Source of the DNA: Escherichia phage EcNP1
Sequence record: NC_054910.1
Length of the DNA stretch: 64,000 bases
Direction: 5' to 3' (one strand)
The notes beneath the pieces were generated by a model. The model did not search any database. It was given only the letters and a program-made list of their open reading frames with translations, and was not told the origin of the DNA. Below, piece after piece: positions 4,732-59,121 of the stretch. Within the stretch, counting starts at the first letter, position 1, and every line of letters starts with the position of its first letter. The translations under genes and the position numbers were made by a program.

Positions 4732-4733
4732 AA

Positions 4734-5171: not shown

Positions 5172-5176
5172 TCAAC

Positions 5177-5353: not shown

Positions 5354-5473
5354 TATAAATTCTCTTTTAAATGAAAATGCAGGACTTATTGGCATTGCCT
5401 GCGCAAGCCCTCAAGGGGAACATAGGTTTTTGAATATTTAACGACCAGGATAACCATAAACCCGTCATCATAC

Positions 5474-7956: not shown

Positions 7957-8477
7957 GTTGATCCTAGCTCCTTACTTTCAACGTTTTTAACTAATTTGAC
8001 AGAAACTAATTCAGCATCTTGAGTAATCATTACCGGACCTTCTTCATACTCTTCAAGATATTCTAGAGCTTTCTTTTTAGCTTCTTCCTTCGTATCAGTT
8101 TGAGCATAGATATAAAACATACAACCAGTAATACCTACTACTTTCCACTTAATTTCTTTATCAGTTTTAATTTCAAATTTACTAACAGAATCATCTTTTT
8201 GAACTTCTTCGAAAAAAGAATATTCTAACATATAAGCAATTGAAAATAACGGACTAACTTTATAGGATTCACCCATTACATCAACAGCTTTATACCAACA
8301 ATCATCAATTTCGCGTTTAATGCTAATAACATTTTTCGCAGGATCTATTTTTACTTTAAATGAATTTTCCCCAATAAACTGGGCAATTCGTTTATTAGCC
8401 CCGCAAGTTTCATTAAAAATATCTTTATATCCAGCTTTAAAGCGATAAACCTTATCTTCTTCAAACCATTCGCTCAT
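7950..8477 (-). CDS. hypothetical protein (cd.3 position)
   Basis: 175-aa ORF; early promoter upstream near 8509-8538. Confidence 0.55.
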   Translation of the reverse strand: MSEWFEEDKVYRFKAGYKDIFNETCGANKRIAQFIGENSFKVKIDPAKNVISIKREIDDCWYKAVDVMGESYKVSPLFSIAYMLEYSFFEEVQKDDSVSKFEIKTDKEIKWKVVGITGCMFYIYAQTDTKEEAKKKALEYLEEYEEGPVMITQDAELVSVKLVKNVESKELGSTC

Positions 8478-13477: not shown

Positions 13478-14647
13478 TTAAAAATATTTTTTAAAACTCA
13501 TCATAACTTTATCATCAACATCATTATCAATCTGTGCAACAAGGTAAGATGACAGTTCTACTTCTTGCGGCGCGGATTGAACATTATCAGAATTAAGATA
13601 TTCACGAATCCAAGGATACGGATGTTTAACCGGAGCATCGGTAATTGGGCATGGAAGACCGCACTGTTTCATACGAGATACAGTTAAGTAATCAATAAAG
13701 CTCCACATGCTATTTGTATTTAATCCAGGAACATCGCCATCTTTAAATAAATGAACTGCCCAGTCTTTTTCTTGGCGGTTAACTTCCATGAAAATATCAA
13801 CTGCTTCTTGTTCACACTCTTGAGCAATTTTAACCCATTCATCACCATCTGTGCCAAGTTGAAGTTGACGAATAATATATTGGGTGCCTTTAAGGTGTAG
13901 CTGTTCATCACGTGCAATGAACTTCATAATCTTAGCATTACCTTCCATGATTTCCATGTTTTTATGGAAGTTAAAGGTGCATGCGAAAGATACATAAAAA
14001 CGAATAGCTTCCAAGGCGTTGATTACATGCAAGCAGAGGTAAAGAGATTTCATTAATGCTCGTTTAGTACATTCAACAACTTTGCCTAACTCTTCTTTAC
14101 GAAATCCTTCTGATAAAATTCCTTCATAATCTTCAACCGCATTCTGATATTCACGAGTCTTAACTAGAACATCATCATAATAGCGACCAATGGACTCGGC
14201 ACGTTTCATAATAGCTTTATCTAATACAATCTCATCAAATACCTTTGACGGATCAGTATAAAGATTTCGCATGATATGAGTATATGAACGGCTGTGAATA
14301 GTTTCACTAAAAGTCCATGTAGCAACCCATGTATCAAGACTTGGGTCTGAAATTAATGACATAAGTACAGCAGACGGTGCACGACCCTGAATGCTATCCA
14401 AAAGTGATTGATACTTCAGATTATTAGTAAAAATATCTTGCTGATACTGAGGAAGCTTGTTAAATTGTGCAGCATCCATCATCAAGTTTACTTCTTCAGG
14501 ACGCCAGAAAAATGACAACTGCTTTTCGGTTAAATCTTCAAAAACTTTATGACGTTGAATATCGTAACGCGCAATACCAAGACCTGAACCGAAGAACATA
14601 GGTTCTTTTAAAACATCAACTGGATTTGTATTAAAAACTGTGCTCAT
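13478..14647 (-). CDS. nrdB: ribonucleotide reductase small subunit, uninterrupted
   Basis: 389-aa continuous ORF with class Ia R2 features; no intron (T4 nrdB carries a group I intron). Confidence 0.93.
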   Translation of the reverse strand: MSTVFNTNPVDVLKEPMFFGSGLGIARYDIQRHKVFEDLTEKQLSFFWRPEEVNLMMDAAQFNKLPQYQQDIFTNNLKYQSLLDSIQGRAPSAVLMSLISDPSLDTWVATWTFSETIHSRSYTHIMRNLYTDPSKVFDEIVLDKAIMKRAESIGRYYDDVLVKTREYQNAVEDYEGILSEGFRKEELGKVVECTKRALMKSLYLCLHVINALEAIRFYVSFACTFNFHKNMEIMEGNAKIMKFIARDEQLHLKGTQYIIRQLQLGTDGDEWVKIAQECEQEAVDIFMEVNRQEKDWAVHLFKDGDVPGLNTNSMWSFIDYLTVSRMKQCGLPCPITDAPVKHPYPWIREYLNSDNVQSAPQEVELSSYLVAQIDNDVDDKVMMSFKKYF

Positions 14648-14698
14648 AAATTTTCCGCTTAGTTAATAGATAGTGACTCGTCCGTGAGTCAAATTATA

Positions 14699-16963
14699 TC
14701 ATAATTTACAGGATGAACAATCTTCAGCTTTTGGAGTTTCTATTTCATAATCATCAGTACCAGAACCATCACGGGTATTATGATAATAGAAATTTTTTCC
14801 GCCAAAATACCAAAAGTACAAAAGGTCATCAATCATTACAGACATTGGAACCTTTCCTTTTGGAAAAATCTGCGGGTCATAATATGTATTCGCTGAAGCT
14901 GATTGACATACCCATTTCAGCATAATAGCTACTTGCGTAAGATAAGGTTTATTACCTTTCTTAGCTAATTTCCATGTATAATCATAGAGGTCTATGTTAT
15001 GTTCAATATTGGGCACGACTTGATTAAAGGAACCCTCTTTTGATTCTTTAACCGAGACTGGTCCACGTGGAGGCTCGATACCGTTTGTACTGTTAGAAAC
15101 TTGGGAAGATGACTCACATGGCATAAGTGCTGATAATGTGCTATTACGGATGCCAAAGAGCTTAAGGTCTTCCCGCAGCGACGACCAGTCACAAACGTAT
15201 TTTGGAGCTGCGATTTGGTCAATCTTTTTATTGTACCAGTCGATAGGTAATTCGCCTCGAGACCAACGAGTGTCTGAATAATATTCGCAAGGTCCTTTTT
15301 CTTTGGCGAGCTTAATGGATGCTTTGATGAGTCCATACTGTAATCTCTCAAATAGTTCATGTGTTAAATCGTTAGCATCTTCATAAGAAGCAAAGTTACT
15401 TGCCAGCCAAGCTGCATAGTTAGTAACACCTACACCAAGATTTCGACGCTTTTTAGCTTTTTCTGCTTCAGGAACTGGATATCCTTGGTAATCCAAAAGA
15501 TTATCAAGAGCGCGAACTTGAACTTCTGCTAATTCATTAATTTTATCTTGGTCTTGCCAATCGAAGTTATCCAACACAAATGCAGATAACGTACACAATC
15601 CAATTTCAGCATCAGGGCTATTCACATCATTTGTTGGAATAGCAATTTCACAACACAAGTTACTCTGACGAATAGGTGCCTTTTCACGAATAAATGGAGT
15701 ATAGTTATTCGTATTATCAATGAACTGCACATAAATCCTTGCTGTTCCTGAACGTTCAGTCATGAGTAATTCAAACAGTTCACGTGCTTTAATACGCTTT
15801 TTACGAATATTAGGGTCTTTTTCTGCGGCTTCATACAATTCACGGAAACGGTCTTGGTCTTTAAAATAAGAATAATAAAGTTCGCCACCCATTTCATGCG
15901 GACTGAACAAAGTAATGTAATCATTCTTTCCGAATCGTTCCATCATTAGGTCATTCAGCTGGACGCCATAATCCATATGACGGATACGGTTTTCTTCTAC
16001 ACCTTTGTTATTTTTCAAAACGAGAAGATTTTCAACTTCCAAATGCCAAATAGGATAATAAGCAGTAGCAGCGCCGCCACGAATTCCACCCTGTGAACAT
16101 GATTTAACAGCAGTCTGAAAATGTTTCCAAAAAGGAATAACACCAGTATGACGCACTTCACCTGTGCCAATCTTAGAACCTTCGGCACGAATCATACCAA
16201 CGTTAATGCCGATTCCAGCTCGTTTGGAGATATATTCAACAATTGAAGCAGAAGCTTTGTTAATAGACTTCAGCGAATCACCTGCTTCAATAACAACGCA
16301 TGAACTAAACTGTCGAGTTGGAGTACGACATCCAGCCATAATAGGAGTTGGCAGTGAAATCTGTCGAGTAGATACTGCTTCATAAAAACGAATAACATGT
16401 TTTAATCTGTCAACAGGTTCATCTTGATGCAATGCCATTCCAATAGTCATAAATGCAAACTGCGGAGTTTCATAAATTTGACCAGTGGTTTTATCTTTAA
16501 CGAGATATTTTTCTTTTAATTGCATCGCCCCGGAATAAGTAAATTCCATATCCCGCTCGTGCTTAATTTTTGATTCTAAAAATGTAATTTCTTCTGCTGA
16601 ATATTTTGACAACAGTTCAGGGTCGTATTTACCTTCATTTACACAGTAAGAAATATGGTCAATAAATGAACGCGGTTCATACTGTCCGTAAACATGCTTA
16701 CGAAGAGCAAACATTAAACAGCGAGCGGCTACGTATTGATAATCAGGCTCTTCAACTGAAATAGAATTCGCAGCAGCCTTAATGACAATAGTCTGAATGT
16801 CGTCAGTTGTCATTCCATCACGGAGATATGATTTAATATTTTCATATAATTCATAAGGATCTACAGATGTTCCTTCAGCTGCCCAAGATAAAACTTTAAT
16901 AATTTTTTGCGGGTAAAAGCTCTGAGAAACACCACTACTTTTGATAACATTAATTAATTGCAT
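14699..16963 (-). CDS. nrdA: ribonucleotide reductase large subunit
   Basis: 754 aa, ATP-cone N-terminus and catalytic NLCCEI-type region; T4 NrdA length. Confidence 0.95.
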   Translation of the reverse strand: MQLINVIKSSGVSQSFYPQKIIKVLSWAAEGTSVDPYELYENIKSYLRDGMTTDDIQTIVIKAAANSISVEEPDYQYVAARCLMFALRKHVYGQYEPRSFIDHISYCVNEGKYDPELLSKYSAEEITFLESKIKHERDMEFTYSGAMQLKEKYLVKDKTTGQIYETPQFAFMTIGMALHQDEPVDRLKHVIRFYEAVSTRQISLPTPIMAGCRTPTRQFSSCVVIEAGDSLKSINKASASIVEYISKRAGIGINVGMIRAEGSKIGTGEVRHTGVIPFWKHFQTAVKSCSQGGIRGGAATAYYPIWHLEVENLLVLKNNKGVEENRIRHMDYGVQLNDLMMERFGKNDYITLFSPHEMGGELYYSYFKDQDRFRELYEAAEKDPNIRKKRIKARELFELLMTERSGTARIYVQFIDNTNNYTPFIREKAPIRQSNLCCEIAIPTNDVNSPDAEIGLCTLSAFVLDNFDWQDQDKINELAEVQVRALDNLLDYQGYPVPEAEKAKKRRNLGVGVTNYAAWLASNFASYEDANDLTHELFERLQYGLIKASIKLAKEKGPCEYYSDTRWSRGELPIDWYNKKIDQIAAPKYVCDWSSLREDLKLFGIRNSTLSALMPCESSSQVSNSTNGIEPPRGPVSVKESKEGSFNQVVPNIEHNIDLYDYTWKLAKKGNKPYLTQVAIMLKWVCQSASANTYYDPQIFPKGKVPMSVMIDDLLYFWYFGGKNFYYHNTRDGSGTDDYEIETPKAEDCSSCKL

Positions 16964-17280
16964 AAGTCCTCAACTTGAAAATCGTCTTTAAACAATCGGT
17001 TAACTATATGAGCTATTATATCACCATGACACGGCTTTGGTTTACATGTGCATCCTAGCCTCATTCCACGTAAAGGCTCTAAATGTGCTTTAGTTATTTC
17101 TCCGGATTTAATTCGACGTATAAAATCTTTTTTGAATAATTCAATGGCAGCCTCCCGGCTGCCAGCATCTTTACCGACGTAATTTCCCCAAAATGTACCA
17201 CGGTGAATATTAACATCAAAGTCGGATTTATATTTATTCACTACCTGGCATAGACGGCCCGCGCGGTGATAATTCGTCAT
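16954..17280 (-). CDS. hypothetical protein with Cys/His cluster (nrdA.1 position)
   Basis: 108 aa; [13 protein letters not shown]; overlaps nrdA start by 10 nt. Confidence 0.55.
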
Positions 17281-17497
17281 ATTGTTTTTCCGTTAAAACA
17301 GTAATATCATAGTAACAATCTGAAGAAGTTTTAACTGTAGAAATTTTATTATCAAAATACTCACGAGTCATTTTATGAGTATAATATTTTTTGCCGTAAA
17401 TGATAATAGGCTGATTTGGTCCTGGAACTTCTAACTCACTTGGATTAGGAAGTGTAAAAAGAACTACACCAGAAGTATCTTTAAATCGTAAAATCAT
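17234..17497 (-). CDS. hypothetical protein (87 aa)
   Basis: ORF track; between td and nrdA. Confidence 0.5.
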
Positions 17498-17520
17498 ATA
17501 TCCTCACAATTAATAATTAA

Positions 17521-18380
17521 TTACACCGCCATTTTTCCTTTAATAGGAGGGTGTGATTCGTAACCTTTAAGAACGAAATCTTTAGGCCTGAGTTTAAGAA
17601 CATATTCCAATTGTTCTTTAGTAGAAAGATAGCGGAATTTATAAGGCAATCCGCCTATTACCAGTTCACAAAGCTCTTTAGGTTCACGACGCAAAATTTC
17701 TTTACATTGTTCTACGTGATTCATATAAATATGAGTATTACCGCCAGAAAATATCAAATCTCCTGGAATAAGATTACACATCTTAGCTACAATATGAACT
17801 AATGCAGCATATGATGCAATATTAAATGGAAGACCGAGGAAAACATCTACCGAACGTTGATACCACTGCAAATCCAAATAGCCATTACGCACATTAAACT
17901 GATAGAACATATGACAAGGCGGTAATGCCATATATTTAAGTTCAGCTGGATTCCATGCAGAAACAATTTGACGCCTATCATTTGGTAGTTTTTTAATACG
18001 ATCAACAACTTCTATAATTTGGTCTACACCGCCAAAATCACGCCATTGTTTTCCATAAATTGGACCAAGTTCACCACTATGATATCCTAAATCTTTTGCT
18101 TGATTTTCGTAATTTTCATCCCAGACTGTTTTGCCTTGAATTAATGAATCATGTTGAATTAATCGCAAATCATTGACATTTATGCTTCCCGATAAAAACC
18201 AAAGGAGCTCAGCAATGCAAGCTTTCCAGGCGAGCTTCTTAGTTGTTACTGCAGGAAAACCTTTACTTAAATCCCAGCGCAATTTAGTACCAAACAAAGC
18301 AATTGTTCCTGTGCCTGTTCGGTCATCGGTTTCGTAACCATTTTCCAGGATATCTTTAATTAAAAATTGGTATTGTTTCA

Positions 18381-18381
<1 letters not shown>
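17521..18381 (-). CDS. td: thymidylate synthase, uninterrupted
   Basis: Track ORF starts at TTG; ATG at 18381 gives MKQYQFLIKDILENGYETDDRTGTGT, 286 aa as in T4 TS; no intron or I-TevI. Confidence 0.95.
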
Positions 18382-19410
<1,029 letters not shown>

Positions 19411-21779: not shown

Positions 21780-21850
21780 TTTTATTTCCTTTTTAATTTA
21801 ATTAACAGTTGGTGCTATGACGATGTATGACCTCATAGCTGGTCAGTGAG
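21780..21850 (-). promoter_or_regulatory. gene 32 autoregulatory translational operator
   Basis: mRNA leader ...UUAAUUAAAUUAAAAAGGAAAUAAAA-AUG with UUAAA repeats, preceded by a structured segment, as described for T4 gene 32. Confidence 0.55.
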
Positions 21851-21862
21851 ATAATTATAATC

Positions 21863-21870
21863 TATTTATA
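21863..21870 (-). promoter_or_regulatory. late promoter TATAAATA upstream of gene 32
   Basis: Exact TATAAATA on minus strand about 85 nt upstream of gene 32 ATG. Confidence 0.5.
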
Positions 21871-21878
21871 ATAAGCAA

Positions 21879-29859: not shown

Positions 29860-32844
29860 ATGGCTACTTTAAAACAAATACAATTTAAAAGAAGCAAAAC
29901 TGCAGGTCAACTTCCTGCCGCTTCAGTATTAGCCGAAGGTGAATTGGCTATTAATTTAAAAGATAAAACAATTTTCACAAAAGATGACTCAGGCAATGTT
30001 ATAGAATTAGGTTTAAAATATGGAGGAACAATTGATGGTTCTTTAACTGTTAATGGAAATATAATTGGAAATTTAACAGGTAACGCTGCAACTGCAACCA
30101 AATTAAAAACAGCACGAAAAATTAATGGTATATCCTTTGATGGGTCAAAAGATATCACGCTAACTCCATCCGACATAAATGTCAATAGCACAACGTTTAT
30201 AAAAAATAACGGCGAATTACCTGTTGATGCTAATTTAGATACGTATGGGCCTGTTGAAGAATATCTTGGAGTTTGGTCGAAAGCAACTTCAACCAACGCT
30301 CAACCAGCAAATAAATTTCCAGAAGACAATGCTGTAGGTGTGCTAGAAGTATTTGTGGCCGGTCAATTTGCTGGTACTCAGAGATATACAACTAGATACG
30401 GAAATGTTTATATTCGTTCCTTGACTGCTACATGGAACGGAGTAAATGGTCCGTGGAGTGTGTGGCGAAATATTCAATCTGGTACTCGTCCACTGTCAAC
30501 AACAATTGATCTTAATGATCTAGGAGGCGCTGAACACTTTGGTTTGTGGCGAAATAGTTCAAATTCCATTGCTACATTTGACAGAAATTTCCCAGAAGAG
30601 GGGTCGTCAGCTCAAGGTCTTTTGGAAGTATATGAAGGTGGAAACTATTCTCGTACACAAAGATATACAACCAGATTTGGTGTTGTTTATACTCGTTGTC
30701 TTGCTGCCGCGTGGGATTCTACTGCGCCTAAATGGGGACCGTGGCAACAAGTCGGTAATGTCACACCAGCGACTTTTTATGATGGAGATCTGAATGATTT
30801 TAAAACTCCTGGGTTATATAATATTTTAGGCACTGATGCCGTTATTAATTGTCCTACAGGCGAAGGTTTACCAGCCGTTATTGTTGGTTTGCTGGAAGTT
30901 AAACAGCGTGCTTCTGGTGGTGCTATTTTCCAAAAATTTACTACTGCCGGAACAGGTGCAACTACCCGCGATCGTATTTTTGAGCGCGCATATACCGGCG
31001 GTGTGTGGGGTGAATGGAACGAAGTATACACATCTTATTCTCTACCAATTACTTTGGGTATGGGCGGTATTAAATCTAACTTAGCAGAGTTAGACTGGCA
31101 AACATTTGATTTTGTTCCTGGTAGTATGTTTAGCGTTCCTTTGAACAAAATAAAGAACATGCCAGCTAATATGGATTGGGGTACGATTGACGGAAACTTA
31201 ATTATGTTTTCTGTTGGTCCTAGCGAGCACACCAGCACAGGACGTACTGTTCAGGTTTGGCGTGGTACTGTATCCCAGACAAACTACCGTTATTTTGTCG
31301 TTCGTGTATTCGGTAATTCAGGAAATAGAACTTGCACAGTTCGTCGCGTTGTTCTTGAAGATGGTCGCCACAAATGGACAGCGCAACAAGATTTTAATGG
31401 CGCAGTTAACTTCGGTGCTCCTACCAATTTTAACTCTACTGTTAACCTTAATAACACTACCACTTTTAAAACAGAAGTTAAATTTCGCTCATTGAATGCA
31501 TTCCGTATGTATGGCGGAAAATTTGGTACAATTTTCCGTAATGATGGAGAGAGTCTTTATATTCTTTCCACCGACGAAGATGACCAAGATGGAAACTTTA
31601 ATACAAATAGACCTTTCCGTTATGAATTGAGAACTGGCGATGTTACTTTAGGCGGTACTAGTGGTGCTAACGTTTTAAAATTAAAACGTGATTCTCTCAC
31701 CGCATTTTTTGGCGGTGATATTAACATGAAAGGCGTGCTGACTTTTGACGCCGGACGTTTAGGATCACGAGATTATTTTAAATTTAACCATTGGGGTGAT
31801 AGTAATAATGCGCGTGATAACATTATTCAGTTAGAAGACAGCAAAGGCGCTCATTTTTCCACTGAACGTACTTTAGCGACTGGTGCAATTAAGACTAAAT
31901 TTTTTGGTGAAATTGAATCCGATGGTAAATTGGTTATTAAACGTCCGGGTGATTCTATTGTATTATCAACAACTGCTAGTAATTCTTTGCATATTCGTGG
32001 TGACATAGACGGGACTGGTAACTGGTATATTGGTAAGGGTGGTGCTGATAATGGATTAGCGTTATATAGTTATGCTACTAATGCTGGTGTATACATTACA
32101 AACGCAGGAGATATCACGCTAAGTCCAAAAGGCGTCGAAATGGCTCATGTTAATAACGTTCGATTATATGTTCATGGTGAACGTTGGACTGCTAGTCAAC
32201 CAGGTGATTGGGGTAGTCAGTGGCAAGTGGAAGCGCCAATATTCGTCGATCATGGTTATGTTTCACAGGATTGTTATTATCCAATTATTAAAGGAAGAAG
32301 TGTAATCACCAATCAAGGGTTTGTAACTGCCGTCGATCTTGGTATTCGTCGTGTCAATAACAATTGGGGACAAGCAATTATTCGTGTTGGATCTGCGGAG
32401 GCATCGCCAGCGGCTGGACACCCTAACGCGGTATTTGAATTTCATTACGACGGTACTTTCTATTCTCCTGGTAATGGTAACTTTAACGATGTGTATATTC
32501 GTTCCGATGGTCGACTTAAGATCAATAAAGAAGAGTTAGAAAACGGAGCACTTGAAAAAGTTTGCCGACTGAAAGTTTATATTTACGATAAAGTTAAGTC
32601 TATTAAAGACCGTAGTGTTATTAAACGTGAAGTTGGTATTATTGCTCAGGACCTTGAAAAGGAATTACCGGAAGCTGTATCTAAAGTTGAAGTTGATGGA
32701 TCTGATGTTCTGACAATTTCTAACTCTGCTGTGAATGCTCTTTTAATTAAGGCTATTCAGGAAATGAGTGAAGAAATTAAAGAATTGAAAACGCCTTTCT
32801 TCACTAAAATTGCTCGCAAAATTAGTAATTATTTTAAATTCTAA
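29860..32844 (+). CDS. 37: long tail fibre distal subunit gp37 with C-terminal chaperone-like domain
   Basis: 994 aa; N-terminus [39 protein letters not shown] as gp36/gp37 family; C-terminal ~113 aa with SDGRLK motif. Confidence 0.92.
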
Positions 32845-32848
32845 CAAC

Positions 32849-32866
32849 AAGGGGCTTTGCCCCTTT
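32849..32866 (+). other. short GC hairpin between genes 37 and 38
   Basis: AGGGGC-UUU-GCCCCU followed by UUUGGAG and the gp38 ATG; weak terminator or RNA stability element. Confidence 0.4.
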
Positions 32867-32876
32867 GGAGAAAATT

Positions 32877-33677
32877 ATGGCAGTAGTTGGTGTTCCCGGC
32901 TGGATTGGAAGTTCATCCGTAAATGAAACAGGACAACGATGGATGAGTCAAGCGGCTGGTCAATTAAGATTGGGTGTTCCTTGCTGGATGAGCCAATTCG
33001 CCGGACGCTCAAGAGAGATTATTCATACCGTAACAGCAAACCATAACTTTAATGGTCAATGGTTCCGTGATAGGTGCTTTGAAGCTGGCGGTGCACCCAT
33101 TGTATTCAATATTGTTGGTGATATCGTTTCTTATTCTAAAGATGTGCCACTTTTCTTTATGTATGGGGATACGCCTAATGAATATGTTGTTCTTAATATT
33201 CATGGTGGTGTTCATATGTGGGGTCGTGGTGGTAATGGTGGATACACTCACTCAGGAGGCGACGGTAACGGTACACAAGGCGGTCATGTTATTCAAAATG
33301 ATATCGGTGGACGGCTTCGTATTTGGAACTACGGTGTTATAGCTGCTGGGGGTGGCGGCGGCGGTGGTATTGCATATCGTCCACACTCAGGGGCAAACTG
33401 GCAAGATATCGGTGGCGGCGGCGGTCGACCTTTCGGTGGTGCTGGCGGTGGCGGTTATTCCGGTGGTGCTGCTTCGTATGAAGGTCCGGGTGGTGGTTAT
33501 GACTATGGTAACGCACACTCCGGCGCAGGTGGTAATGCTGGTGCTGCTGGTCAGAATGCATGGTCTGACGGCGGTAAAGTTCTTAAAGTTGGTGTTGGTG
33601 GTGCGTCTGGTCATGCAGTGTTTGGGTCTTCTCCAACTTGGGGTGCTGTTGGAACAATTTACGGACCAAGAGTATAA
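32877..33677 (+). CDS. 38: T2-type receptor-binding adhesin gp38 (glycine-rich motifs)
   Basis: Track ORF starts at TTG; ATG at 32877 with GGAG RBS gives [13 protein letters not shown]; conserved N-domain then Gly-rich motifs ([28 protein letters not shown]) as in T2/T6 gp38. Confidence 0.9.
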
Positions 33678-33682
33678 TTTGA

Positions 33683-37218: not shown

Positions 37219-37368
37219 TTACTGCATGACTGTGATAACTGTCATGATAACACGTTGAATGCCGAACGCAAGAAGACCTCCTGCTACAGCTGGAACAACA
37301 CCTAAACCCGCCAGTAAAATGCCACCGGATACTAATGCAGCGCTTGTAATACCTATGAATGGACTCAT
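37219..37368 (-). CDS. small hydrophobic Gly-rich membrane peptide (49 aa)
   Basis: Read by eye: MSPFIGITSAALVSGGILLAGLGVVPAVAGGLLAFGIQRV...; ATG overlaps gene 52 stop; terminator hairpin right after its stop. Confidence 0.45.
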   Translation of the reverse strand: MSPFIGITSAALVSGGILLAGLGVVPAVAGGLLAFGIQRVIMTVITVMQ

Positions 37369-38693
37369 TTGATTTCCTCTAAATCTTTGGTGTATTCTGT
37401 AACTACATCAGTAGTTTTCCAATATTCGTTTTCTTCTTTCTTAGCTTTAGCTTCTTCAGCAAGTTTCTTTGCTTCGTCGGAAGTCATATGAAAAATATTC
37501 ATTCCGACTAGTTTATCAACATAAGAAGAATACATATCAATTTTAGAAAGTTCTTCGGTCAGTTCTTTGCGAGTTTTACCTTGTACAACAATTTCACCTG
37601 AAATTACTTTCTTAATGAAATGTGCCTTGGCAAAGGCTAAACGAAATGCTGATTCAGTTTCTTTGATTTTGTTATCAATTCGTTTTTGGACATAAGTTTT
37701 ACGAACTTCAACGAAGTCTTTGATTAAATCAACTACGTTATCGTAAACTTGTAGCTTTCCTTTCTCGTTGATGACTGTAATATTTTGGGAACGACGCTCA
37801 ATCAACCCGAAGTCTTTCATGATTTTTGCATGGCGTTCTTCTTCGTTATCACTCAAAGAGTATTCTTTGCGGAATTTAACTTTAAAGCCAAAACCATGCT
37901 CACCACAAGCATCATCCCATGTAATGAAGCCTTTATCTTCAAGCGGGTCTAAGATTTTACTCACATAAGTTTCACGATCATACTTATACGGAATCTCAGT
38001 GATATTCATTTGAGTTCGTGAAGTAAACTTGTACGTTCCACGAATTTCATATTGGCCATCAATTTCAACGACTTCACCACGAAATTCTGGAAATTCTACC
38101 TTCGGTTTAGTTACTTTCTTTCCTTGAAGAGCTTGTAGTACAGCTTTCTTGACAGAAGAAACACTATGAGGAAGAATGTAAGTTGCATAACCAGTTGCAA
38201 TACCGGAAACACCATTAAGAAGAACAGTAGGAATAATAGGCAAATAGAAAGCAGGAGGAATGTGTTCTTTATCTTGATGTACCGGAGCATATTCAGTATC
38301 TTTATATACGTTATAGAAATTTTTACTTACACGAGCAAAAATATAACGACTCGCCGCTGCTTTTTGAACGGTACGAGAACCAAAGTTTCCTTGACCATCT
38401 AACAAAGGAAAGTTATTATTCCAAGTGTTAGCCATCAAAGCCCCCGCATCTTGTGCAGAGTTTTCACCATGATGATATCCAAGGTCAGCTACACCACCTG
38501 CAATAGAAGCAAGTTTGTGAAACTTATCTTTATTTCCTCGCGCCAAATCAAGAGCTCGAGCAATAACAAATCGTTGAACTGGCTTAAATCCATCAATCAT
38601 ATTTGGAATAGCACGATTTTCAACCGTGTACATAGCATAAGCCAGTGCTTCATTATCAATGATACTTTTTAAATCGCGATTATTCAGTTGCAT
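37365..38693 (-). CDS. 52: DNA topoisomerase II medium subunit gp52
   Basis: 442 aa, MQLNNRDLKSIIDNEALAYAMYTVENRAIPNMIDGFKPVQRF; GyrA-like N-terminus; T4 gp52 length. Confidence 0.95.
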   Translation of the reverse strand: MQLNNRDLKSIIDNEALAYAMYTVENRAIPNMIDGFKPVQRFVIARALDLARGNKDKFHKLASIAGGVADLGYHHGENSAQDAGALMANTWNNNFPLLDGQGNFGSRTVQKAAASRYIFARVSKNFYNVYKDTEYAPVHQDKEHIPPAFYLPIIPTVLLNGVSGIATGYATYILPHSVSSVKKAVLQALQGKKVTKPKVEFPEFRGEVVEIDGQYEIRGTYKFTSRTQMNITEIPYKYDRETYVSKILDPLEDKGFITWDDACGEHGFGFKVKFRKEYSLSDNEEERHAKIMKDFGLIERRSQNITVINEKGKLQVYDNVVDLIKDFVEVRKTYVQKRIDNKIKETESAFRLAFAKAHFIKKVISGEIVVQGKTRKELTEELSKIDMYSSYVDKLVGMNIFHMTSDEAKKLAEEAKAKKEENEYWKTTDVVTEYTKDLEEIK

Positions 38694-43064: not shown

Positions 43065-45242
43065 TTAGGCCGCAAGGGCCTTCATAGTTTTAGCGATTTG
43101 GGAAACTTCATCATCACTTAAAGAATTGCGATAACCGATGAAGTCGGAAACAATACGGAATTTCTTGGTAAACTCAGCAACCATTTTATCACTGTTTTTT
43201 GAAGCATTATTTGATAATACATCAAAAAGATTAGTTACCGTCCAGATGTCATGACCGATGGTATCTTTTCCACCGTTGAAATATACACCCTGTAATGAAC
43301 TAACCATATTAGCGAGTCGTGTATATTCTTCGGAAACTTCATCTACACTGAAGTACTTCATCATAAAATCTAACTCAGGATACTTGATAATTTTATCAAT
43401 ATATCGTTTAGCTGAACTTGAATAACCTACATACTTATCATAATCTACATCATCAAAAGCATCTACATATAAATCACGCAAAGTTTCAAAAATACATTGA
43501 CACTGACCAAGTTCTTTTACCTTTTTCTGTAAAAGTGGACGAATAACATAAAATTCATTAATGCCAATAAGATTAGCCATACGAGTCAAAATACTCGTAG
43601 ATGGATGACAAAGCGATGTAGTACCATCCATAGAGAAAATATCAGAACGATGCATGTATGCTACATAACCAGTAATTTCATCTGCTTCTGATGTGAGCGT
43701 AAACAATTCCTCTTTTTCCCAGCGCCCGTCTTTAATTTCAAACTTAAATGCAGTAGCAGTTTTAGGACGAGGAGCTGTACTTTTTACTGCCTTTGGAATA
43801 TAACTTTTAACTAAAGCTTCAATTTCTGACAGATAATGAATGTTAACTTCATCACTTTCAAACATTGCGATAATATCAGGAAGCAAATCAATCTGCGATT
43901 CTACTTCCGGATTAATAAACAGAAGACGCTCATTGTGATGAATATTCAAAGTGTTATTAAATTCACTATCATCTAATGCACGTGCTAATCCACGGACAAT
44001 ATTAACACGATTTTTAATATTATCAATGACGATATTAATTTTTGTTGTGTTAATACCAAACAGACGATAACTTGATGCAACGGCTGAAGTTTCATGGCTT
44101 TGCTTAATGCGTTTCAGTCGAGGGTCAAGATTTACTTCATACACAACCCCTGCATTGCATAACTTACTATCAGGCTCAAACATGCTTTGCATCTTCTTAT
44201 ATGACAGATTTTTAGTCGTGAATTTGACCGAATTACTAATCATATAATCTCGAGCAGAATATCCCATCTTCATCAATTCACGGTATGTATGACGAGGAGA
44301 TGTAGATTCTTTAAATCGTTTTACATCTTCATTGAATGCCTTCTCACTAAGCTCTTTAACACGCTCAATAATATTTTTACGAGTACGATCATCTAGTGAA
44401 AGAGCCTCACGCGATGGAGCAATATCAAGTGAACCCATTGGAAACTTAATATAATTCACTTCATTGCGAATGCTTAACCAGTTACGGTCTCTAATAACAC
44501 CATCGATAGGATAAACAATACCGCCATAGATAGCGTACAATCCACCACGATCTGGCCAGTATCTTTCTGGATTTACACCGTAATAGTCATCAAAATCCGG
44601 AAAATAATCAATTTCGCGGTCAAGACCATTAATGATAGCCAAATCTTTGAATGGTCGCATGATATAAGAAACTTCATAAGCAAAGTTTCTAAAGTCTTTT
44701 TCTTCAACTGGAACTACGATTTCAATACCAGTTTTATCATCTGGATCCATTTCTTTTACGAATGTAGGTTTAATCTGCGGACCATCACCATCCATGTAAG
44801 CTACATAACCGCGAATTTCACCTTTATGGTACGAAGTAATACTAAACGTATCAGTATAACTAAACGGAGATTTAGAACCTAAACCAAATCCACCAATGAA
44901 ATCGTTAGATTCAGCCTTAGATGAACTGAAGTATGAATTATACAACCCAGGAGAATTATCATCACCCTGAATATCAAAATCGCTCATACCCGGACCAAAA
45001 TCTCGGCAAACAAATCGCGGATCTAATCGTCCTGGAACTTGAATGATAAATTTTTCAGGATTTCCATTGAGAGCATGGGCATCAATCATGTTGGTAATCA
45101 ATTCACGTACTACTGCGCGAATCTTGTTTGTGTACAAATCAGATGATAGAATTTTAAATACTTTAGGAGATGCTGTGATGCTAAATGCTTTTGATTTAGA
45201 ACCATTACCAAGAATTGTTTCTTTTTCAGTGGTGATAATCAT
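43065..45242 (-). CDS. rIIA: rIIA rapid-lysis/exclusion protein
   Basis: 725 aa, [40 protein letters not shown]; matches T4 rIIA. Confidence 0.95.
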
Positions 45243-45252
45243 AATTTCCTCA

Positions 45253-45456
45253 TTAATTCATATTGCGTTTAATAACTTCAGCAACTTCTAGTAGTTCATC
45301 TTTAGTTGCGGTGTCGGATTGAATTTTATCTCTAATATCCTTAAAGCGGTTTTTAAACTCTTCGGCTTCTCCCATATCGAAAAAGCGTTGAATGATTCTA
45401 TATTCTCGATGAACTGCTTTATCAAAAAGTTCTAAATTTACTCTATATGATTTCAT
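45253..45456 (-). CDS. hypothetical protein (rIIA.1 position)
   Basis: 67-aa ORF immediately upstream of rIIA. Confidence 0.55.
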
Positions 45457-45481
45457 TTCAATATCCTCATTTGCCCAATTA

Positions 45482-45512
45482 ATTATACCACATCCTTGTG
45501 GTAAAGTAAACT
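45482..45512 (-). promoter_or_regulatory. early promoter upstream of rIIA.1/rIIA
   Basis: Minus strand GTTTAC, 17-nt spacer, TGGTATAAT (perfect extended -10). Confidence 0.6.
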
Positions 45513-47331
45513 ATTGGCTCATCCATTCTTTACGAAGGTCAGCATTATCTCCCATGAGCATTTCAAAAAGCTCTTTCCAGTTCTCAGGAAGTTTAACAAC
45601 ATCATATACTGGGTTTTGAATCATCTCACGATATTCAGATTTTTCCAAAGAGCCAAGTCCCTTAATATAACGGATGCTATGTTTAGGTAGAGCATCTTTA
45701 GCACTCTCATATTCAGCGACTGTATAAAACCATTCTTGTTTTTTACCGACCTGAGCGATGATTACAGGAGTTTTGACAAAGCGAATTCTTCCTTGTTCAA
45801 ACAGTTCTGGCCAATTACTAAAAAATCCGAGCAGAGAAGGATAAATGCTTCCTAGACCATCATGGTCAGCATCAGTCATAATAGCAATATTATGATAATT
45901 CAAGTTTTCGGCTTTTTCACCAAGAACTAATCCAGTGATTGCGCAAATATCAAACAGCTCTTTGTTTTTAAGCATATCAGCATATGACATACCCCAGCTG
46001 TTAAGAACTTTACCACGCAATGGATAACCGCCATGAAGTTCTTTATCACGAACATCAATAAGATATCCGATAGCAGAATCACCCTCAGTCAAGAAAAGAG
46101 TAGTGTCAGCATCTTTACCACAAAGATTCGCTTTAATATGTTTATGAACCTTAGCTTTAGAGGCCTTTTTAGCTGCTTTAGTTTCTGCTGCTTTTTCTGC
46201 CGCCAATTTACGAGCCAAGGCAGCTTCAATGATTGGCATTAAAATTGCTTCATTATTTAAAATAGCACGTGAAATCTTTTTAGCATCAAGCTGAATATGA
46301 CTACGAATTTCACCAAATGGAGAAGTCAAACGCTCTTTAGTTTGAGAATCAAATCGCATGTTTTTCATATCACGAACAAACATAACGATAGTCAAACATT
46401 CTTTAACACGTGCTTTAGTTACATCAATTTTGAATTTACGTTTGATTTGTGGAATAAGGTCTTCACAAATATCATCCATAACACAATCAATATGATGGCC
46501 ACCATTCTTGGTATGAATGTTATTGACGTATGTTAATTGACGAAAACCATCCGGTGAACGACCGACCGCAATAGAACAATTTTCTTGTTCTTGAACGATA
46601 GCATGTTCATCATATTGGCGTGCATATTTCTTAAAATTACCCTGAACCTTTTTACCATTAAAGGTAAATTGAATATCAGGATAAACTACTGCAAGTGTCT
46701 GGAGACGATCCAGTGTAATGTCAAGATAAACTTGAGATAGCTCATTAGTTTCAAATGACATAAAATCAGGAATAAAAGTAACGCGAGTTCCTTTCCATTT
46801 TCCAGGAATATCTTCCCATGATTTATTTTCCATGCCATTCGAGCAGCGAACTACAATATTATTTTGACCGTCGCCAGTTTCACCGACAAACATCACAGAA
46901 AAAATGTTAGTTAAACTAGAACCAACACCGTTCATACCGCCAGTGACGCGTTCTTTATCATCACCAAAGTTACCACCTGCTTTTGGAATAGTCCATGCAG
47001 CAACAGGACCAGGAATTTCTTCACCGGTAGGTGTTTTAACCATCGCCTGTGGAATACCACGACCGTTATCTTCAACTGTTACTTGATTGTTTTTGATAGT
47101 AACATTAATTTTATTTGCGAATTTAAACTTAGTACGAATACCTTCATCTACTGAGTTATCAATAATTTCATCAATAAGCTTAACAAGACCAGGTACATAC
47201 TGAACACTTTCCCATTTACCAAACAGAAAGCGCTCATGCATTTCATTAGCAGAAGAGCCAATATACATGCCGCTACGCTTTTTGATATGTTCAATATCGC
47301 TCAGAATTTTAATTTCATTCTTAATCATCAC
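45511..47331 (-). CDS. 39: DNA topoisomerase II large subunit, uninterrupted
   Basis: 606 aa, (M)MIKNEIKILSDIEHIKKRSGMYIGSS GHKL ATPase plus TOPRIM region continuous to the C-terminus; equals T4 gp39 plus gp60 in one ORF. Confidence 0.93.
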   Translation of the reverse strand: MMIKNEIKILSDIEHIKKRSGMYIGSSANEMHERFLFGKWESVQYVPGLVKLIDEIIDNSVDEGIRTKFKFANKINVTIKNNQVTVEDNGRGIPQAMVKTPTGEEIPGPVAAWTIPKAGGNFGDDKERVTGGMNGVGSSLTNIFSVMFVGETGDGQNNIVVRCSNGMENKSWEDIPGKWKGTRVTFIPDFMSFETNELSQVYLDITLDRLQTLAVVYPDIQFTFNGKKVQGNFKKYARQYDEHAIVQEQENCSIAVGRSPDGFRQLTYVNNIHTKNGGHHIDCVMDDICEDLIPQIKRKFKIDVTKARVKECLTIVMFVRDMKNMRFDSQTKERLTSPFGEIRSHIQLDAKKISRAILNNEAILMPIIEAALARKLAAEKAAETKAAKKASKAKVHKHIKANLCGKDADTTLFLTEGDSAIGYLIDVRDKELHGGYPLRGKVLNSWGMSYADMLKNKELFDICAITGLVLGEKAENLNYHNIAIMTDADHDGLGSIYPSLLGFFSNWPELFEQGRIRFVKTPVIIAQVGKKQEWFYTVAEYESAKDALPKHSIRYIKGLGSLEKSEYREMIQNPVYDVVKLPENWKELFEMLMGDNADLRKEWMSQ

Positions 47332-47356
47332 TTATCCTCGTTTGGTTTCGGGAATA

Positions 47357-47381
47357 TTATACTCCAGTAATCATAAAGCTA
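47357..47381 (-). promoter_or_regulatory. middle-promoter-like element upstream of gene 39
   Basis: Minus strand TAGCTTTA (MotA-box-like, one mismatch), 12-nt spacer, then TATAAT. Confidence 0.35.
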
Positions 47382-47397
47382 AAGGCCCGAAGGCCTT

Positions 47398-47667
47398 TTA
47401 TTTAAAACGGATAGTCGAATCCTTGAAGAATAGACCAGAACATACTGTTCCTTCTACTTTCTGCCCGGTAGGTCCAATAGCACGAAATCCAGTGTGTTGG
47501 AAATCATTTTCAGAGCAACCGAACCAATTATATCCAGTGATTTCAATATTAGTAAAACCACTTGAAGACAAAACTTTGGTTGCATTATCGGCATCAGTAC
47601 ATCCTACTAAAGATACTGCTAATACTAATGCCGCGATAGAACGATTAACATATTTCATAATTTTCAC
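47398..47667 (-). CDS. predicted lipoprotein (89 aa)
   Basis: N-terminus MKIMKYVNRSIAALVLAVSLVGC has signal peptide plus lipobox. Confidence 0.6.
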   Translation of the reverse strand: MKIMKYVNRSIAALVLAVSLVGCTDADNATKVLSSSGFTNIEITGYNWFGCSENDFQHTGFRAIGPTGQKVEGTVCSGLFFKDSTIRFK

Positions 47668-48041
47668 TTAAATTTAATGGCTTGAAGGAGACTAATAATT
47701 CTCAAGCGACTTCTTTCATCTTTAACTGTAAAAGAAAGAGGGTCACCAGATTTCATAGTGATGGTGCATCCAAAATCAAAATCTTCTGTAACTTCTTCGA
47801 ATAGGTCAAATTCTTCATCATAAATTAGAACATTACTCTGAAAACTGTGAAGAATTTTTCCATCATTTCCAGATGCTGTACTAATCATTGTAACATTATT
47901 ACCCTTCATATCTTCAACGATAAATTCGCCTGTAGATATTACATTACTAATAGAACCATTCCTATAAATAGCAGAAAATAGATATTTCTTTTCTTCACCT
48001 TCGCGAATGCGATATTTCTTACCGATTTTAAACATAATCAT
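47664..48041 (-). CDS. hypothetical protein (125 aa)
   Basis: ORF track; coupled. Confidence 0.55.
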   Translation of the reverse strand: MIMFKIGKKYRIREGEEKKYLFSAIYRNGSISNVISTGEFIVEDMKGNNVTMISTASGNDGKILHSFQSNVLIYDEEFDLFEEVTEDFDFGCTITMKSGDPLSFTVKDERSRLRIISLLQAIKFK

Positions 48042-49796: not shown

Positions 49797-50336
49797 TTAA
49801 TTTAAAATAGCTACCACTGCACTACGAGGTACTACACTAAAATCACCTGCATGAACAACGTTCAGAAGTTCAACACCATCTTCAATCCACTGGTCTGTTA
49901 CCCAACCACAGACCGAAATAAATGGAGTCTTGATAGCTACCGCACGAGTCAAAAGGTCAGTAGGATCGCATTCTTGGAAGAGGATGAACTCTGCTTCAAA
50001 GACTATAGTTTTAATTACTTCATCATTATCTAAACGGTGTACTCGAATCACGTAAGCTTTATTCTTATCATGCCAGTTACTTTTTGAAAAGCTTTTAACC
50101 ACAAACTCGCCTTCACCAAAAACATTAGTCAATGCTTTATAACCCAAATTTAGTTCAGTAGTTTTAATTTCAGTTTCAACCAGTTTGTAGATTTTGCCGA
50201 TTTCAATAGCGGTAGTCATAGTAGGTTCCTTAATTTCCAGTGGTTTAACAGGGCATACATAAGTGCTTACAACATCAAAATCAATCAGTTTAGCTACCGG
50301 ATTCGGTGTGTATTCAGGATTATAATTAAATTTCAT
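49797..50336 (-). CDS. paralog of the MotB-like protein (179 aa)
   Basis: C-terminal VTDQWIEDGVELLNVV aligns with the 162-aa neighbour. Confidence 0.55.
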   Translation of the reverse strand: MKFNYNPEYTPNPVAKLIDFDVVSTYVCPVKPLEIKEPTMTTAIEIGKIYKLVETEIKTTELNLGYKALTNVFGEGEFVVKSFSKSNWHDKNKAYVIRVHRLDNDEVIKTIVFEAEFILFQECDPTDLLTRAVAIKTPFISVCGWVTDQWIEDGVELLNVVHAGDFSVVPRSAVVAILN

Positions 50337-50338: not shown

Positions 50339-50878
50339 TTATCTCATTTCAATAAAATCTACGAGTTCAGCATGGGATTTGCGGAACATTACTTGGTGTC
50401 CACCAATGACAACTTGATCATCTGGCACTTCGTATACAGCAAGATAAAATCCTTTAGAAGATAATTCTTCACGCTCTTCTCGTGTGAACCATCTCATCAT
50501 ATCATATTCGCTAGCGAAAGCAAAATGATAAAGAGCTATAAACCATCCTGGAATATGATATTCTACTCCAACATAATCTTTCTTGAACTTAGTATTAATT
50601 ACTATATTAGCGTTTTTAACTAATAGTTTATCTTCGTGTGGTAAAGGAATTCTTTTATTATTATCGCTATGATGCATAAAATTAGGTCTGTCATAACCTA
50701 CGTGTAATAGCCACTCTTCGCTCCATGAATCTATTATACTCCTGTACGGCGTTATTTGAACACAAAGATTTCGACGTATTGTTATAGCATCTTCATAATC
50801 AAGAATACTAAACGATGACTCAACACGATAAATTTTCATTTTATTATCCTCAGTAGCTATGGTGTTATAATACCACAA
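50339..50878 (-). CDS. hypothetical protein (179 aa)
   Basis: ORF track; directly upstream of dexA. Confidence 0.55.
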   Translation of the reverse strand: MWYYNTIATEDNKMKIYRVESSFSILDYEDAITIRRNLCVQITPYRSIIDSWSEEWLLHVGYDRPNFMHHSDNNKRIPLPHEDKLLVKNANIVINTKFKKDYVGVEYHIPGWFIALYHFAFASEYDMMRWFTREEREELSSKGFYLAVYEVPDDQVVIGGHQVMFRKSHAELVDFIEMR

Positions 50879-58286: not shown

Positions 58287-58330
58287 ATAATTCTCGCGGC
58301 TTTTAAGTCGTCGTTTAAATAAACGAGCTA

Positions 58331-58849
58331 TTAATAACCTCGGTCTTGACGAGCGAAGTTTTCAGCATTCTTCAGATAATAAAGTTTAAAGATTTCTTCA
58401 GCAGTAAGGCCGAGACCTTGGAACATGTTCAGAACGAAATGAAGAATATCAATCATTTCGAATTTAATTTCCAACTGGTCTTGTGGAGACAAATCAGTAA
58501 TCAGAGTTTCACGACGTTCACCATGCTGCGACTTCCAAGGCTTCCATACAGCAGATGCATCTTTTTCACCATTGCTCATACCACCAAGAGAAGTCAGAAG
58601 TTCGCGGAATTCATCGTCAATATAATCTTTCTGATTACGCAGCCAATCAACAACTTCACCTGCGGTAGCCAAATCATCAGGATGACGGTTATATTCAGGT
58701 TTATCTTTAGCTAAACGAACCTGCAGAGATTTCTGCATATCAAGCATAACTTGCAACGGGTCTTTTTCGTCACCGAGAATATCCCAGTATTCATTTTGAG
58801 CTTTATCAGCGCCTTCAATCAGTTGTGAACATTCATTAAAGTATGCCAT
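58331..58849 (-). CDS. 56: dCTP/dCDP pyrophosphatase (MazG-like)
   Basis: Track ORF 203 aa trimmed to MAYFNECSQLIEGADKAQNEYWDILGDEKD (172 aa) as in T4 gp56. Confidence 0.88.
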   Translation of the reverse strand: MAYFNECSQLIEGADKAQNEYWDILGDEKDPLQVMLDMQKSLQVRLAKDKPEYNRHPDDLATAGEVVDWLRNQKDYIDDEFRELLTSLGGMSNGEKDASAVWKPWKSQHGERRETLITDLSPQDQLEIKFEMIDILHFVLNMFQGLGLTAEEIFKLYYLKNAENFARQDRGY

Positions 58850-58920
58850 TATTTTTCCTTTCAATTCATGGGTTAGTAGATTAATTATACAATAAATATA
58901 TAAAGCAATAAGGAGGACAT

Positions 58921-59121
58921 ATGGTACAAAAATTAATGGCACTTGTTAATGCCATAAAAGGTAATAAAAAACGTATAGCTTTTACTATTTCTGCTATGAT
59001 AGGAATTTTACTTTGGAATTTTGTTTTATCGCCAGTTGCTATTGCTCATGGCGTTAGTATTCCAGTAATTACTCTTGATACATTCGTAGATTTAGCATTT
59101 GCTTTAGTTGGGTTAATTTAA
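58921..59121 (+). CDS. opposite-strand small membrane protein (66 aa)
   Basis: ORF track; AAGGAGG RBS 6 nt upstream of ATG; two predicted hydrophobic segments; convergent with gene 61. Confidence 0.45.
   Translation: MVQKLMALVNAIKGNKKRIAFTISAMIGILLWNFVLSPVAIAHGVSIPVITLDTFVDLAFALVGLI

Follow-up and report, generated by a model that had tools for sequence, protein, structure and literature searches.

Gene 39 and the topoisomerase subunit that it encodes

We analyzed a 64,000-nt stretch of the genome of Escherichia phage EcNP1 (NC_054910.1), which we call the window, and examined a long open reading frame (ORF) on its minus strand together with the features that bear on it:

45511..47328, minus strand: gene 39, GyrB-like large subunit of the phage's type IIA DNA topoisomerase; one unbroken frame of 605 aa and a stop
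47329..47339, minus strand: translation start context, with the Shine-Dalgarno sequence GAGGA at 47339..47335, an in-frame TAA at 47334..47332, GTG at 47331..47329, and then ATG at 47328
46882..47190, minus strand: GHKL ATPase domain, aa 47-149 (PF02518 HATPase_c, E 2e-9)
46177..46581, minus strand: transducer domain, aa 250-384 (PF00204 DNA_gyraseB, E 1.5e-13)
45853..46101, minus strand: TOPRIM domain, aa 410-492 (PF01751 Toprim, motifs, and alignment to solved enzymes)
45517..45774, minus strand: C-terminal TOPRIM-associated domain, aa 519-604 (PF16898 TOPRIM_C, E 4e-7), encoded by gene 60 in T4
45847..45910, minus strand: 64-nt stretch that is swapped for a 1,117-nt cassette in T4-type phages; gene nt 1419-1482, codons 473-494 (blastn against T4)
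45855..45856, minus strand: point equivalent to the coding gap of T4 gene 60, between Gly491 (GGT) and Leu492 (CTA); no insert
37365..38693, minus strand: gene 52, GyrA-like breakage-reunion subunit, 442 aa (PF00521 DNA_topoisoIV, E 1.6e-76)

The ORF listing gave a single minus-strand ORF at 45511..47331, counted as 606 aa from GTG and without a break; the chance of 606 sense codons in a row is ∼2e-21 at the local base composition. A preliminary description of this DNA had reported one uninterrupted gene 39 ORF of 606 aa, and the length holds for the GTG-started ORF but not for the protein. The GTG at 47331 is merely the first in-frame start codon past the TAA stop and lies 3 nt from the Shine-Dalgarno sequence, compared with 6 nt for the ATG at 47328. 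The sequence of the start context is the same in T4 and T6, and the ATG is the annotated start in T4, T2, and T6 as well as residue 1 of the solved T6 protein. Due to the Shine-Dalgarno spacing, these annotations, and the first residue of the T6 structure, the true start is almost certainly ATG 47328, which would give a CDS of 45511..47328 (1,818 nt) and a product of 605 aa. A scan of 45200..47800 for promoter and terminator consensus sequences returned sites no more common than in shuffled sequence.

Pfam identified four successive domains on one polypeptide, HATPase_c, DNA_gyraseB, Toprim, and TOPRIM_C, and the protein matched PHROG 543, "DNA topoisomerase II large subunit," with an E value of 2e-295. 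The ATPase domain carries an N-box (EIIDNSVDE, 54-62), a G1 box (DNGRGIP, 87-93), and a G2 box (GGMNGVGSS, 130-138), and the transducer domain carries the QTK loop with its lysine (SQTKERL, 328-334). Taken alone, the Toprim match was below threshold (17.5 bits against a cut-off of 23.1); the region nevertheless aligns, residue by residue, to the solved topoisomerase II structures of T6 and T4 and to further type IIA enzymes. The TOPRIM motifs all lie on the same ORF: the catalytic Glu in LTEGDSA (413-419), PLRGKVLN (436-443), and DADHDG (486-491), with the DxDxD motif at residues 486-490. The ATPase, QTK, Toprim-Glu, and DxD motifs are thus all intact, and by its sequence gp39 is the B-type (ATPase plus TOPRIM) subunit of a type IIA DNA topoisomerase.

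The same ATPase/transducer/TOPRIM architecture is found in cellular GyrB, in ParE, and, among eukaryotes, in the N-terminal half of Topo II. Over its full length, gp39 aligned significantly with human Topo II alpha and beta (E about 1e-59) and also with ParE and GyrB; compared with these cellular B modules, gp39 is much shorter and lacks the GyrB-type insertion. In phmmer searches against the PDB, gp39 resembled eukaryotic Topo II more closely than gyrase in sequence, and the same relationship has been published (PMC11461880).

The probable partner of gp39 is the product of gene 52, which in EcNP1 is colinear with T4 gene 52 at 163876..165204. The phage enzyme would relax DNA and is not known to supercoil it. 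We propose that gp39 would pair with gp52 in a (gp39)2(gp52)2 enzyme with two kinds of subunit, as in T2 and T6. ATP-dependent strand passage by gp39 and gp52 is predicted from the identity of gp39 to its T6 and T2 counterparts (603 to 604 of 605 residues). The T6 two-subunit topoisomerase II is active, and its structure is equivalent to that of the three-subunit T4 enzyme (PMC11461880).

Comparison with T2, T6, and the split gene of T4

Gene 39 of EcNP1 is colinear with gene 39 of both T2 and T6, being 1,818 nt long in all three phages with zero indels. The T2 gene (AP018813.1, 2447..4264) has 96.0% DNA identity to that of EcNP1 (72 of 1,818 nt differ, almost all synonymously), and 604 of 605 residues are the same, the lone substitution being F70 in EcNP1 versus L70 in T2. 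For T6, the DNA identity is 96.1% (71 of 1,818 nt differ) and 603 of 605 residues are the same, with D173 and Q526 in EcNP1 versus T173 and H526 in T6. The neighbors of the gene in T2 are also those in EcNP1, with rIIA and rIIA.1 downstream and 39.1 upstream, and EcNP1 and T6 both have an RB32ORF005c-like extra ORF between 39.1 and 39.2. T6 gp39 has been solved by cryo-EM and X-ray (PDB 8ylu, 8yo1, and others; PMC11461880) and has the domain order seen in EcNP1, in a two-subunit enzyme with gp52. Against the PDB, phmmer returned a full-length match of gp39 to T6 gp39 (8ylu_C, 1,385 bits), whereas the T4 gp39-gp60 fusion (8yo3_C) aligned as two blocks on either side of a stretch present only in T4. 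On these alignments, EcNP1 gene 39 belongs to a Tequatrovirus (T-even) phage and has the unsplit T2/T6-type arrangement, the latter as the preliminary description had proposed.

In the T4 reference (NC_000866, 2458..5328), the same region encodes gp39 and gp60 with a cassette containing MobA and the 50-nt bypass. The earlier account of T4, with an insert between the two genes and the bypass in gene 60, agrees with the T4 annotation and sequence. Residues 1 to 473 of EcNP1 gp39 correspond to residues 1 to 473 of T4 gp39 (98.5%, blastp), and residues 472 to 605 correspond to residues 27 to 160 of T4 gp60 (95.5%, E 7e-96, blastp). The C terminus is therefore related to gp60 as had been suggested, but over 134 residues rather than ∼160. 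The last 43 residues of T4 gp39 and residues 1 to 26 of T4 gp60 are encoded by the cassette and have no counterpart in EcNP1. The T4 split had also been placed between the ATPase and TOPRIM parts; these parts do share one ORF in EcNP1, but the split lies within TOPRIM and separates the catalytic Glu motif (LTEGDSA) from the DxDxD motif.

At the nucleotide level, T4 has 1,117 nt (3910..2794) where EcNP1 has 64 nt. The breakpoints determined by blastn are 45911/45910 and 45847/45846; on either side, 47660..45911 matched T4 5661..3911 (95.3%) and 45846..45203 matched T4 2793..2150 (98.3%), and the T4 flanking genes and upstream regulatory sequence are almost identical to those of EcNP1. The T4 cassette comprises a 43-aa C-terminal extension of gp39 (CTE), a mobA pseudogene, 60.1, a 26- to 30-aa N-terminal extension of gp60 (NTE), homR, and the 50-nt gap. 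T4 homR is a recoded, diverged version of the segment that the cassette replaces; the 64-nt interior of EcNP1 had only 76% identity to it (blastn). These boundaries agree with the published map of the MobA element, in which insertion follows aa 466 to 473, 64 nt are deleted, and homR is 67 to 81% identical (bioRxiv 10.1101/2022.08.31.505936). In the same study, phages of the T4 clade are described as having 9 additional homR nucleotides following the gap, and a 64-nt deletion is also reported for HY01.

At the gap, T4 reads GAT GGA TAG, then 50 nt, then GGA TTA, with take-off at GGA-TAG and landing at GGA. At the site matching codons 46/47 of T4 gene 60, EcNP1 reads GAT GGT CTA GGA AGC without a break (D490, G491, L492, G493, S494), and there is no 50-nt gap, stop, frameshift, or take-off GGA plus stop at this point.

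Cassette searches and the frequency of the unsplit gene

We searched the window for any part of the T4 cassette. Intact MobA, an HNH homing endonuclease (272 aa, from T4T), had no tblastn match in the 64 kb better than E 3.7, and the T4 CTE (43 aa) and NTE (30 aa) produced only chance tblastn matches in the window (E ≥ 0.27), none of them in gene 39. The full T4 insert DNA had no blastn match above 17 nt, the 50-nt gap sequence had just chance matches of 9 to 13 nt, and a query of homR plus the gap gave chance-level matches only across the whole window. One of the gap's segments, GCCTTCGGGC, matched 47385..47394 over 10 nt, but this is just a UUCG-tetraloop hairpin motif that both sequences share. 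Further, mismatches to T2, T6, and T4, counted per 100 nt, were evenly spread along the gene, and no conversion tract was visible around the junction. The absence of the gene 60 split, of the bypass, and of the mobile insertion, all claimed previously, was thus borne out by the continuous minus-strand ORF and by the empty searches for MobA, CTE, NTE, and bypass sequence.

To place the unsplit state among relatives, we used a 201-nt query spanning the junction. The junction was contiguous, as in EcNP1, in 451 of the 493 phage records that contain it (about 91%), and one of the 451 was 100% identical across the query. A cassette-only query found the cassette in just 43 records, in agreement with the 42 partial matches to the junction query. 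Counts of records with at least 80% coverage of 3.1-kb or 1.8-kb megablast queries were rejected as unsplit counts, since coverage of a long query bridges gaps of up to 500 nt plus half the query length, and T4-type records with a 1.1-kb insert are merged. Phages not named T4 also carry the cassette, including HY01, HY03, vB_EcoM_112, and several Salmonella phages.

The best match for gene 39 elsewhere in the sequence collection was 98.6%, and the window had no close full-length relative, the best being about 94 to 95% identical over 25 kb. Compared with T4, 87.9% of the window aligned at 94.1% identity, the adhesin gp38 is of the T2/T6 type, and all six T4 intron and homing-endonuclease insertions were absent from the corresponding interval. 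Five of these are mobile insertions other than the gene 39 cassette; they are cleanly absent, and the nrdB and td ORFs are intact and continuous. The phage is therefore non-T4, as had been stated, but the unsplit state, being common to 451 of 493 related records, is weak as a marker: it rules out the laboratory T4 lineage and gives no specific T2 or T6 placement.

Origin of the unsplit state and its implications

The unsplit gene 39 is the ordinary state and the T4 split with its bypass insert is the exception, as is already known: knowledge of the single gene of T2/T6 type goes back decades, and the structure of its product has been determined (PMC11461880), and the T4 split has been explained as a MobA homing-endonuclease cassette with its own bypass element (bioRxiv 10.1101/2022.08.31.505936). 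In T4-type phages, this cassette cuts the gene inside TOPRIM into 39 and 60, places extension peptides on both halves, and inserts a 50-nt gap that needs ribosome bypass. The best explanation for EcNP1 is that gene 39 is uninvaded, the ∼1.1-kb cassette of T4 and a minority of its relatives probably never having been received. We assign a probability of about 0.96 to the reading that 45511..47328 is an intact, uninvaded T-even gene 39 encoding a 605-aa GyrB-like subunit paired with gp52.

The MobA/bypass cassette could instead have been present in an ancestor of EcNP1 and then been removed cleanly through recombination or gene conversion with an uninvaded relative, leaving a scar-free revertant with the same present function. 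T-even phages have mosaic genomes and undergo free recombination, the window has no close relative at full length, and cassette loss with re-fusion is seen in a clade of Aeromonas phages (bioRxiv 10.1101/2022.08.31.505936). We nonetheless consider this history unlikely. Documented "hit and run" alleles retain CTE and NTE coding scars, none of which occur in EcNP1; the gene has exactly the length of its T2 and T6 counterparts; the 64-nt target has parental-type sequence, near that of T2 over 81 nt and distant from T4 homR; and the even mismatch density leaves no conversion tract by the junction. Moreover, with ∼91% of relatives unsplit, a gene that was never invaded is the parsimonious reading. 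It is important to note that a perfectly clean replacement of the cassette would be traceless.

Two other explanations appear very improbable. Were the contiguity an artefact, with a T4-split genome whose insert was collapsed or lost in assembly, the same junction would not be expected in 451 independent records, one of them identical over 201 nt; the 64 nt that the cassette would delete are also present in parental form, and the clean absence of five further T4 mobile insertions, with nrdB and td intact, is a biological pattern. The ORF might also be open but decaying, an inactive relic in a phage that leans on host gyrase. General T4 genetics lends this some plausibility, as T4 does not strictly require its topoisomerase genes: mutants have a DNA-delay phenotype, and some can use host gyrase. 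Against it, gp39 differs from its T2 and T6 counterparts by only 1 to 2 aa despite ∼4% DNA divergence, nearly all changes being synonymous, which indicates strong purifying selection on gene 39; the catalytic motifs and gp52 are intact as well.

For annotation, the uninvaded gene 39 should be labeled "DNA topoisomerase II large subunit," 605 aa from ATG, with no gene 60 or recoding to seek. Should EcNP1 be a revertant or a naive recipient, the identity and function of the gene would be unchanged.

The window also contains what appears to be the homing target itself. The 81-nt segment 45840..45920 (gene nt 1409-1489) is the same as in T2 at 80 of 81 positions, and the one mismatch falls on the 5' border of the 64-nt stretch. 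T2 is the recipient that was nicked experimentally (Bonocora 2011, as told in bioRxiv 10.1101/2022.08.31.505936). The 64-nt stretch 45847..45910 is thus a predicted MobA homing target in intact form, with a putative nick site near 45876 that we placed from the second-hand description of Bonocora 2011. Because this target is intact and the 81-nt segment around it is almost the same as in T2, EcNP1 is a predicted MobA recipient: in mixed infection with a MobA-positive phage, it would be nicked at the 64-nt target and gain the cassette. If EcNP1 is a true naive recipient, the phage, with no T4-type homing endonuclease in these 64 kb, would be useful for studies of MobA homing and marker exclusion.

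Gene 39 and its partner subunit

The gene for the GyrB-like large subunit of the phage topoisomerase occupies a single ORF on the minus strand (45511..47331), 606 amino acids (aa) long when counted from GTG. At the base composition of this locus, stops should come roughly once in 13 codons, and a run of 606 open codons would arise by chance with a probability of ∼2e-21. The GTG is the first possible start behind an in-frame TAA (coding-strand order, GAGGA-TAA-GTG-ATG), and its Shine-Dalgarno spacing is only 3 nt, versus 6 nt for the ATG at 47328. The equivalent ATG is the annotated start in T4, T2, and T6, and the solved T6 protein starts there too. Because spacing, annotation, and solved protein all favor the ATG, we place gene 39 at 45511..47328, with a product of 605 aa; the preliminary description was right that the frame is uninterrupted but gave its length as 606 aa. 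Residue numbers here count from this ATG, except for Pfam and PDB query positions, which count from GTG. Four domains follow one another along the single polypeptide.

Pfam domains of the gene 39 product
aa 48-150, HATPase_c
aa 251-385, DNA_gyraseB
aa 411-493, Toprim (sub-threshold)
aa 520-605, TOPRIM_C

PHROGs identified the product as "DNA topoisomerase II large subunit" (E value, 2e-295), and the catalytic motifs of type IIA B subunits are all intact (N-box, G1, and G2 of the ATPase; QTK loop; LTEGDSA with the Toprim Glu; PLRGK; and the DADHDG acidic cluster). Among solved structures, chain C of 8ylu matched over the full length (1385 bits), while an engineered T4 gp39-gp60 fusion, 8yo3, matched in two blocks (query 2-474 to 1-473 and query 473-606 to 543-676). 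These are the T6 and T4 topoisomerase II entries, respectively; the enzyme has two subunits (gp39 and gp52) in T2 and T6 and three in T4 alone (PMC11461880). The GyrA-like partner is also present:

37365..38693, gp52 (PF00521; E value, 1.6e-76)

The window thus encodes an intact two-gene (39 and 52) type IIA topoisomerase, with a large subunit 99.7 to 99.8% identical to proteins of established activity and structure. The enzyme would be an ATP-dependent, DNA-relaxing (gp39)2(gp52)2 tetramer supporting phage DNA replication.

The proposed T2/T6-like arrangement was borne out by alignment: gene 39 of T2 and T6 has the same length (1818 nt), no indels, and ∼96% DNA identity. One residue differs from T2 (F70 here, L70 in T2) and two differ from T6 (D173 versus T173 and Q526 versus H526). 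That ∼70 nucleotide changes yield just 1 or 2 aa changes indicates that the gene is under strong purifying selection.

The T4 insertion site and the MobA cassette

In T4, a 1117-nt MobA homing-endonuclease insert (the cassette) splits gene 39 into genes 39 and 60. The window matched T4 on both sides of this insert (47660..45911 to T4 5661..3911, 95.3%; 45846..45203 to T4 2793..2150, 98.3%; blastn), and between the blocks lie 64 nt in the window (45910..45847) versus 1117 nt in T4 (3910..2794). A 46-nt stretch of the T4 segment resembles the 64 nt, at only 76% identity. Identity to T4 stops past codon Ala473 (GC|C here, GC|G TTT GAA in T4) and restarts at ATT TAT CCT (Ile495). According to bioRxiv 10.1101/2022.08.31.505936, the MobA element inserts after aa 466-473, deletes ∼64 nt of the parental gene, carries a diverged copy of the deleted segment (homR, 67 to 81% identical), and includes a 50-nt gap, past which the T4 clade has 9 more homR nucleotides. 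Our breakpoints agree with this anatomy in detail. The point equivalent to the gap (45856/45855, between Gly491 [GGT] and Leu492 [CTA]) has no insert and no take-off GGA plus stop.

At the protein level, window residues 1-473 are 98.5% identical to T4 gp39 1-473, and residues 472-605 are 95.5% identical to gp60 27-160 (E value, 7e-96). The C terminus is thus clearly homologous to gp60, over 134 residues rather than the ∼160 first suggested, and the result that would have refuted the preliminary reading (a C terminus unrelated to gp60) was not obtained. The T4 split is real, but it is not at the ATPase/TOPRIM boundary, where it had been placed; it falls within TOPRIM, separating the catalytic Glu from the DxDxD cluster.

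Neither intact MobA (272 aa, from phage T4T) nor the cassette-encoded extensions of gp39 (43 aa) and gp60 (30 aa) had a better-than-chance match in the 64 kb (tblastn), and the 50-nt gap, homR plus gap, and the whole T4 insert gave chance-level matches at most (blastn). With gene 39 continuous, these results uphold the claim that there is no gene 60 split and no bypass element. Over the 81-nt segment that contains the target (45840..45920), the window and T2 are distinguished by a single base. As described in bioRxiv 10.1101/2022.08.31.505936, MobA reportedly introduces a nick into T2 DNA ∼20 nt upstream of the point where the gap would lie and converts T2 to the split form. Given this near-identity, gene 39 here would be expected to be a susceptible homing site, with a nick near 45876.

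Frequency of the unsplit allele and alternative explanations

Of 50,697 phage records, 43 contain cassette DNA; they are T4 strains and relatives (e.g., RB55, RB59, HY01, HY03, vB_EcoM_112, and several phages of Salmonella). When the junction was queried with a 201-nt sequence, 451 of 493 records (∼91%) gave an unbroken match across it, and the remaining 42 matched on one side only; therefore, the unsplit gene is the rule and T4 the exception. Coverage figures of larger queries were unusable as unsplit counts because pieces within ∼1.4 to 2 kb of each other are merged.

That the unsplit gene is an assembly artifact is contradicted by its junction, which is shared with hundreds of independent records, and decay of the gene is contradicted by the near absence of nonsynonymous change. 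An earlier cassette, later lost without a scar, is unlikely and finds no support: gene 39 bears no trace of the gp39 C-terminal or gp60 N-terminal extension, its 64-nt segment has the parental sequence type, and we saw no conversion tract. The uninterrupted gene 39 is real, and the preliminary interpretation is correct but for three small details. The unsplit form is the ordinary, already described state of the gene.

Other differences from T4

The description of the phage as "non-T4" is supported beyond this locus by sequence divergence, gp38 type, an RB32ORF005c-like ORF shared with T6, and absent mobile insertions. Corresponding T4 intervals aligned over 87.9% of the window length at 94.1% identity, and no record in the collection was closer than ∼94 to 95% over 25 kb. 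Gp38 (32865..33677, plus strand; PF05268 and PF21721) is a T2/T6-type receptor-binding adhesin, not the T4-type assembly chaperone, which was unmatched in the window. Gp37 lies at 29860..32844 (plus strand); its distal half and all of gp38 (30015..33682) did not match T4 DNA. The window also lacks each of the six insertions, introns or homing endonucleases, that T4 has in the corresponding interval.

T4 mobile insertions absent from the window
13478..14647, nrdB intron with I-TevIII (nrdB a continuous ORF)
14647..14703, nrdB.1 and mobE
17521..18393, td intron with I-TevI (td a continuous ORF)
21842..21878, segG
gene 39, mobA cassette
58287..58367, segF

The missing MobA cassette is one case of a general lack of T4 mobile endonucleases in the window, a picture consistent with the literature on T2-like phages (Virol J 2010, PMC2988022).

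Gene 56 (dCTPase, 58331..58942), only ∼175 nt from gene 61 (region 58331..59118), has diverged unusually far from its T4 counterpart (73% aa, 77% nt). T4 dam (DNA adenine methyltransferase, T4 16846..17625) had no match anywhere in the window (tblastn); the gene may lie in another part of the genome or be absent.

Immediately upstream of gene 39 (47340..47400, minus strand), a GGCC-TTCG-GGCC tetraloop hairpin is followed by AGCTTTA, 12 nt, and TATAAT, an arrangement that we take to resemble a T4 MotA-dependent middle promoter. The region is nearly identical in T4 and T6, and a sigma-70 scan did not detect this candidate promoter. A 125-aa ORF between 39.1 and 39.2 (47664..48041, minus strand; phrog_622, function not assigned) has weak similarity to goF-family PHROGs; T6 has a counterpart annotated as RB32ORF005c-like, whereas T4 lacks it. 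A 175-aa ORF (7950..8477, minus strand) lies in a 519-nt segment (7956..8474) unmatched by the T4 cd.2-cd.3 region at the nucleotide level. The motB.1/motB.2 region (49797..50336 and 50339..50878, both minus strand) is also unlike T4, with only 46 residues of T4 motB.1 matching there. A 179-aa ORF there has a motB-like C-terminal segment (PF17613; E value, 2.7e-8), and a similar ORF in T6 is annotated "C-terminus similar to motB."
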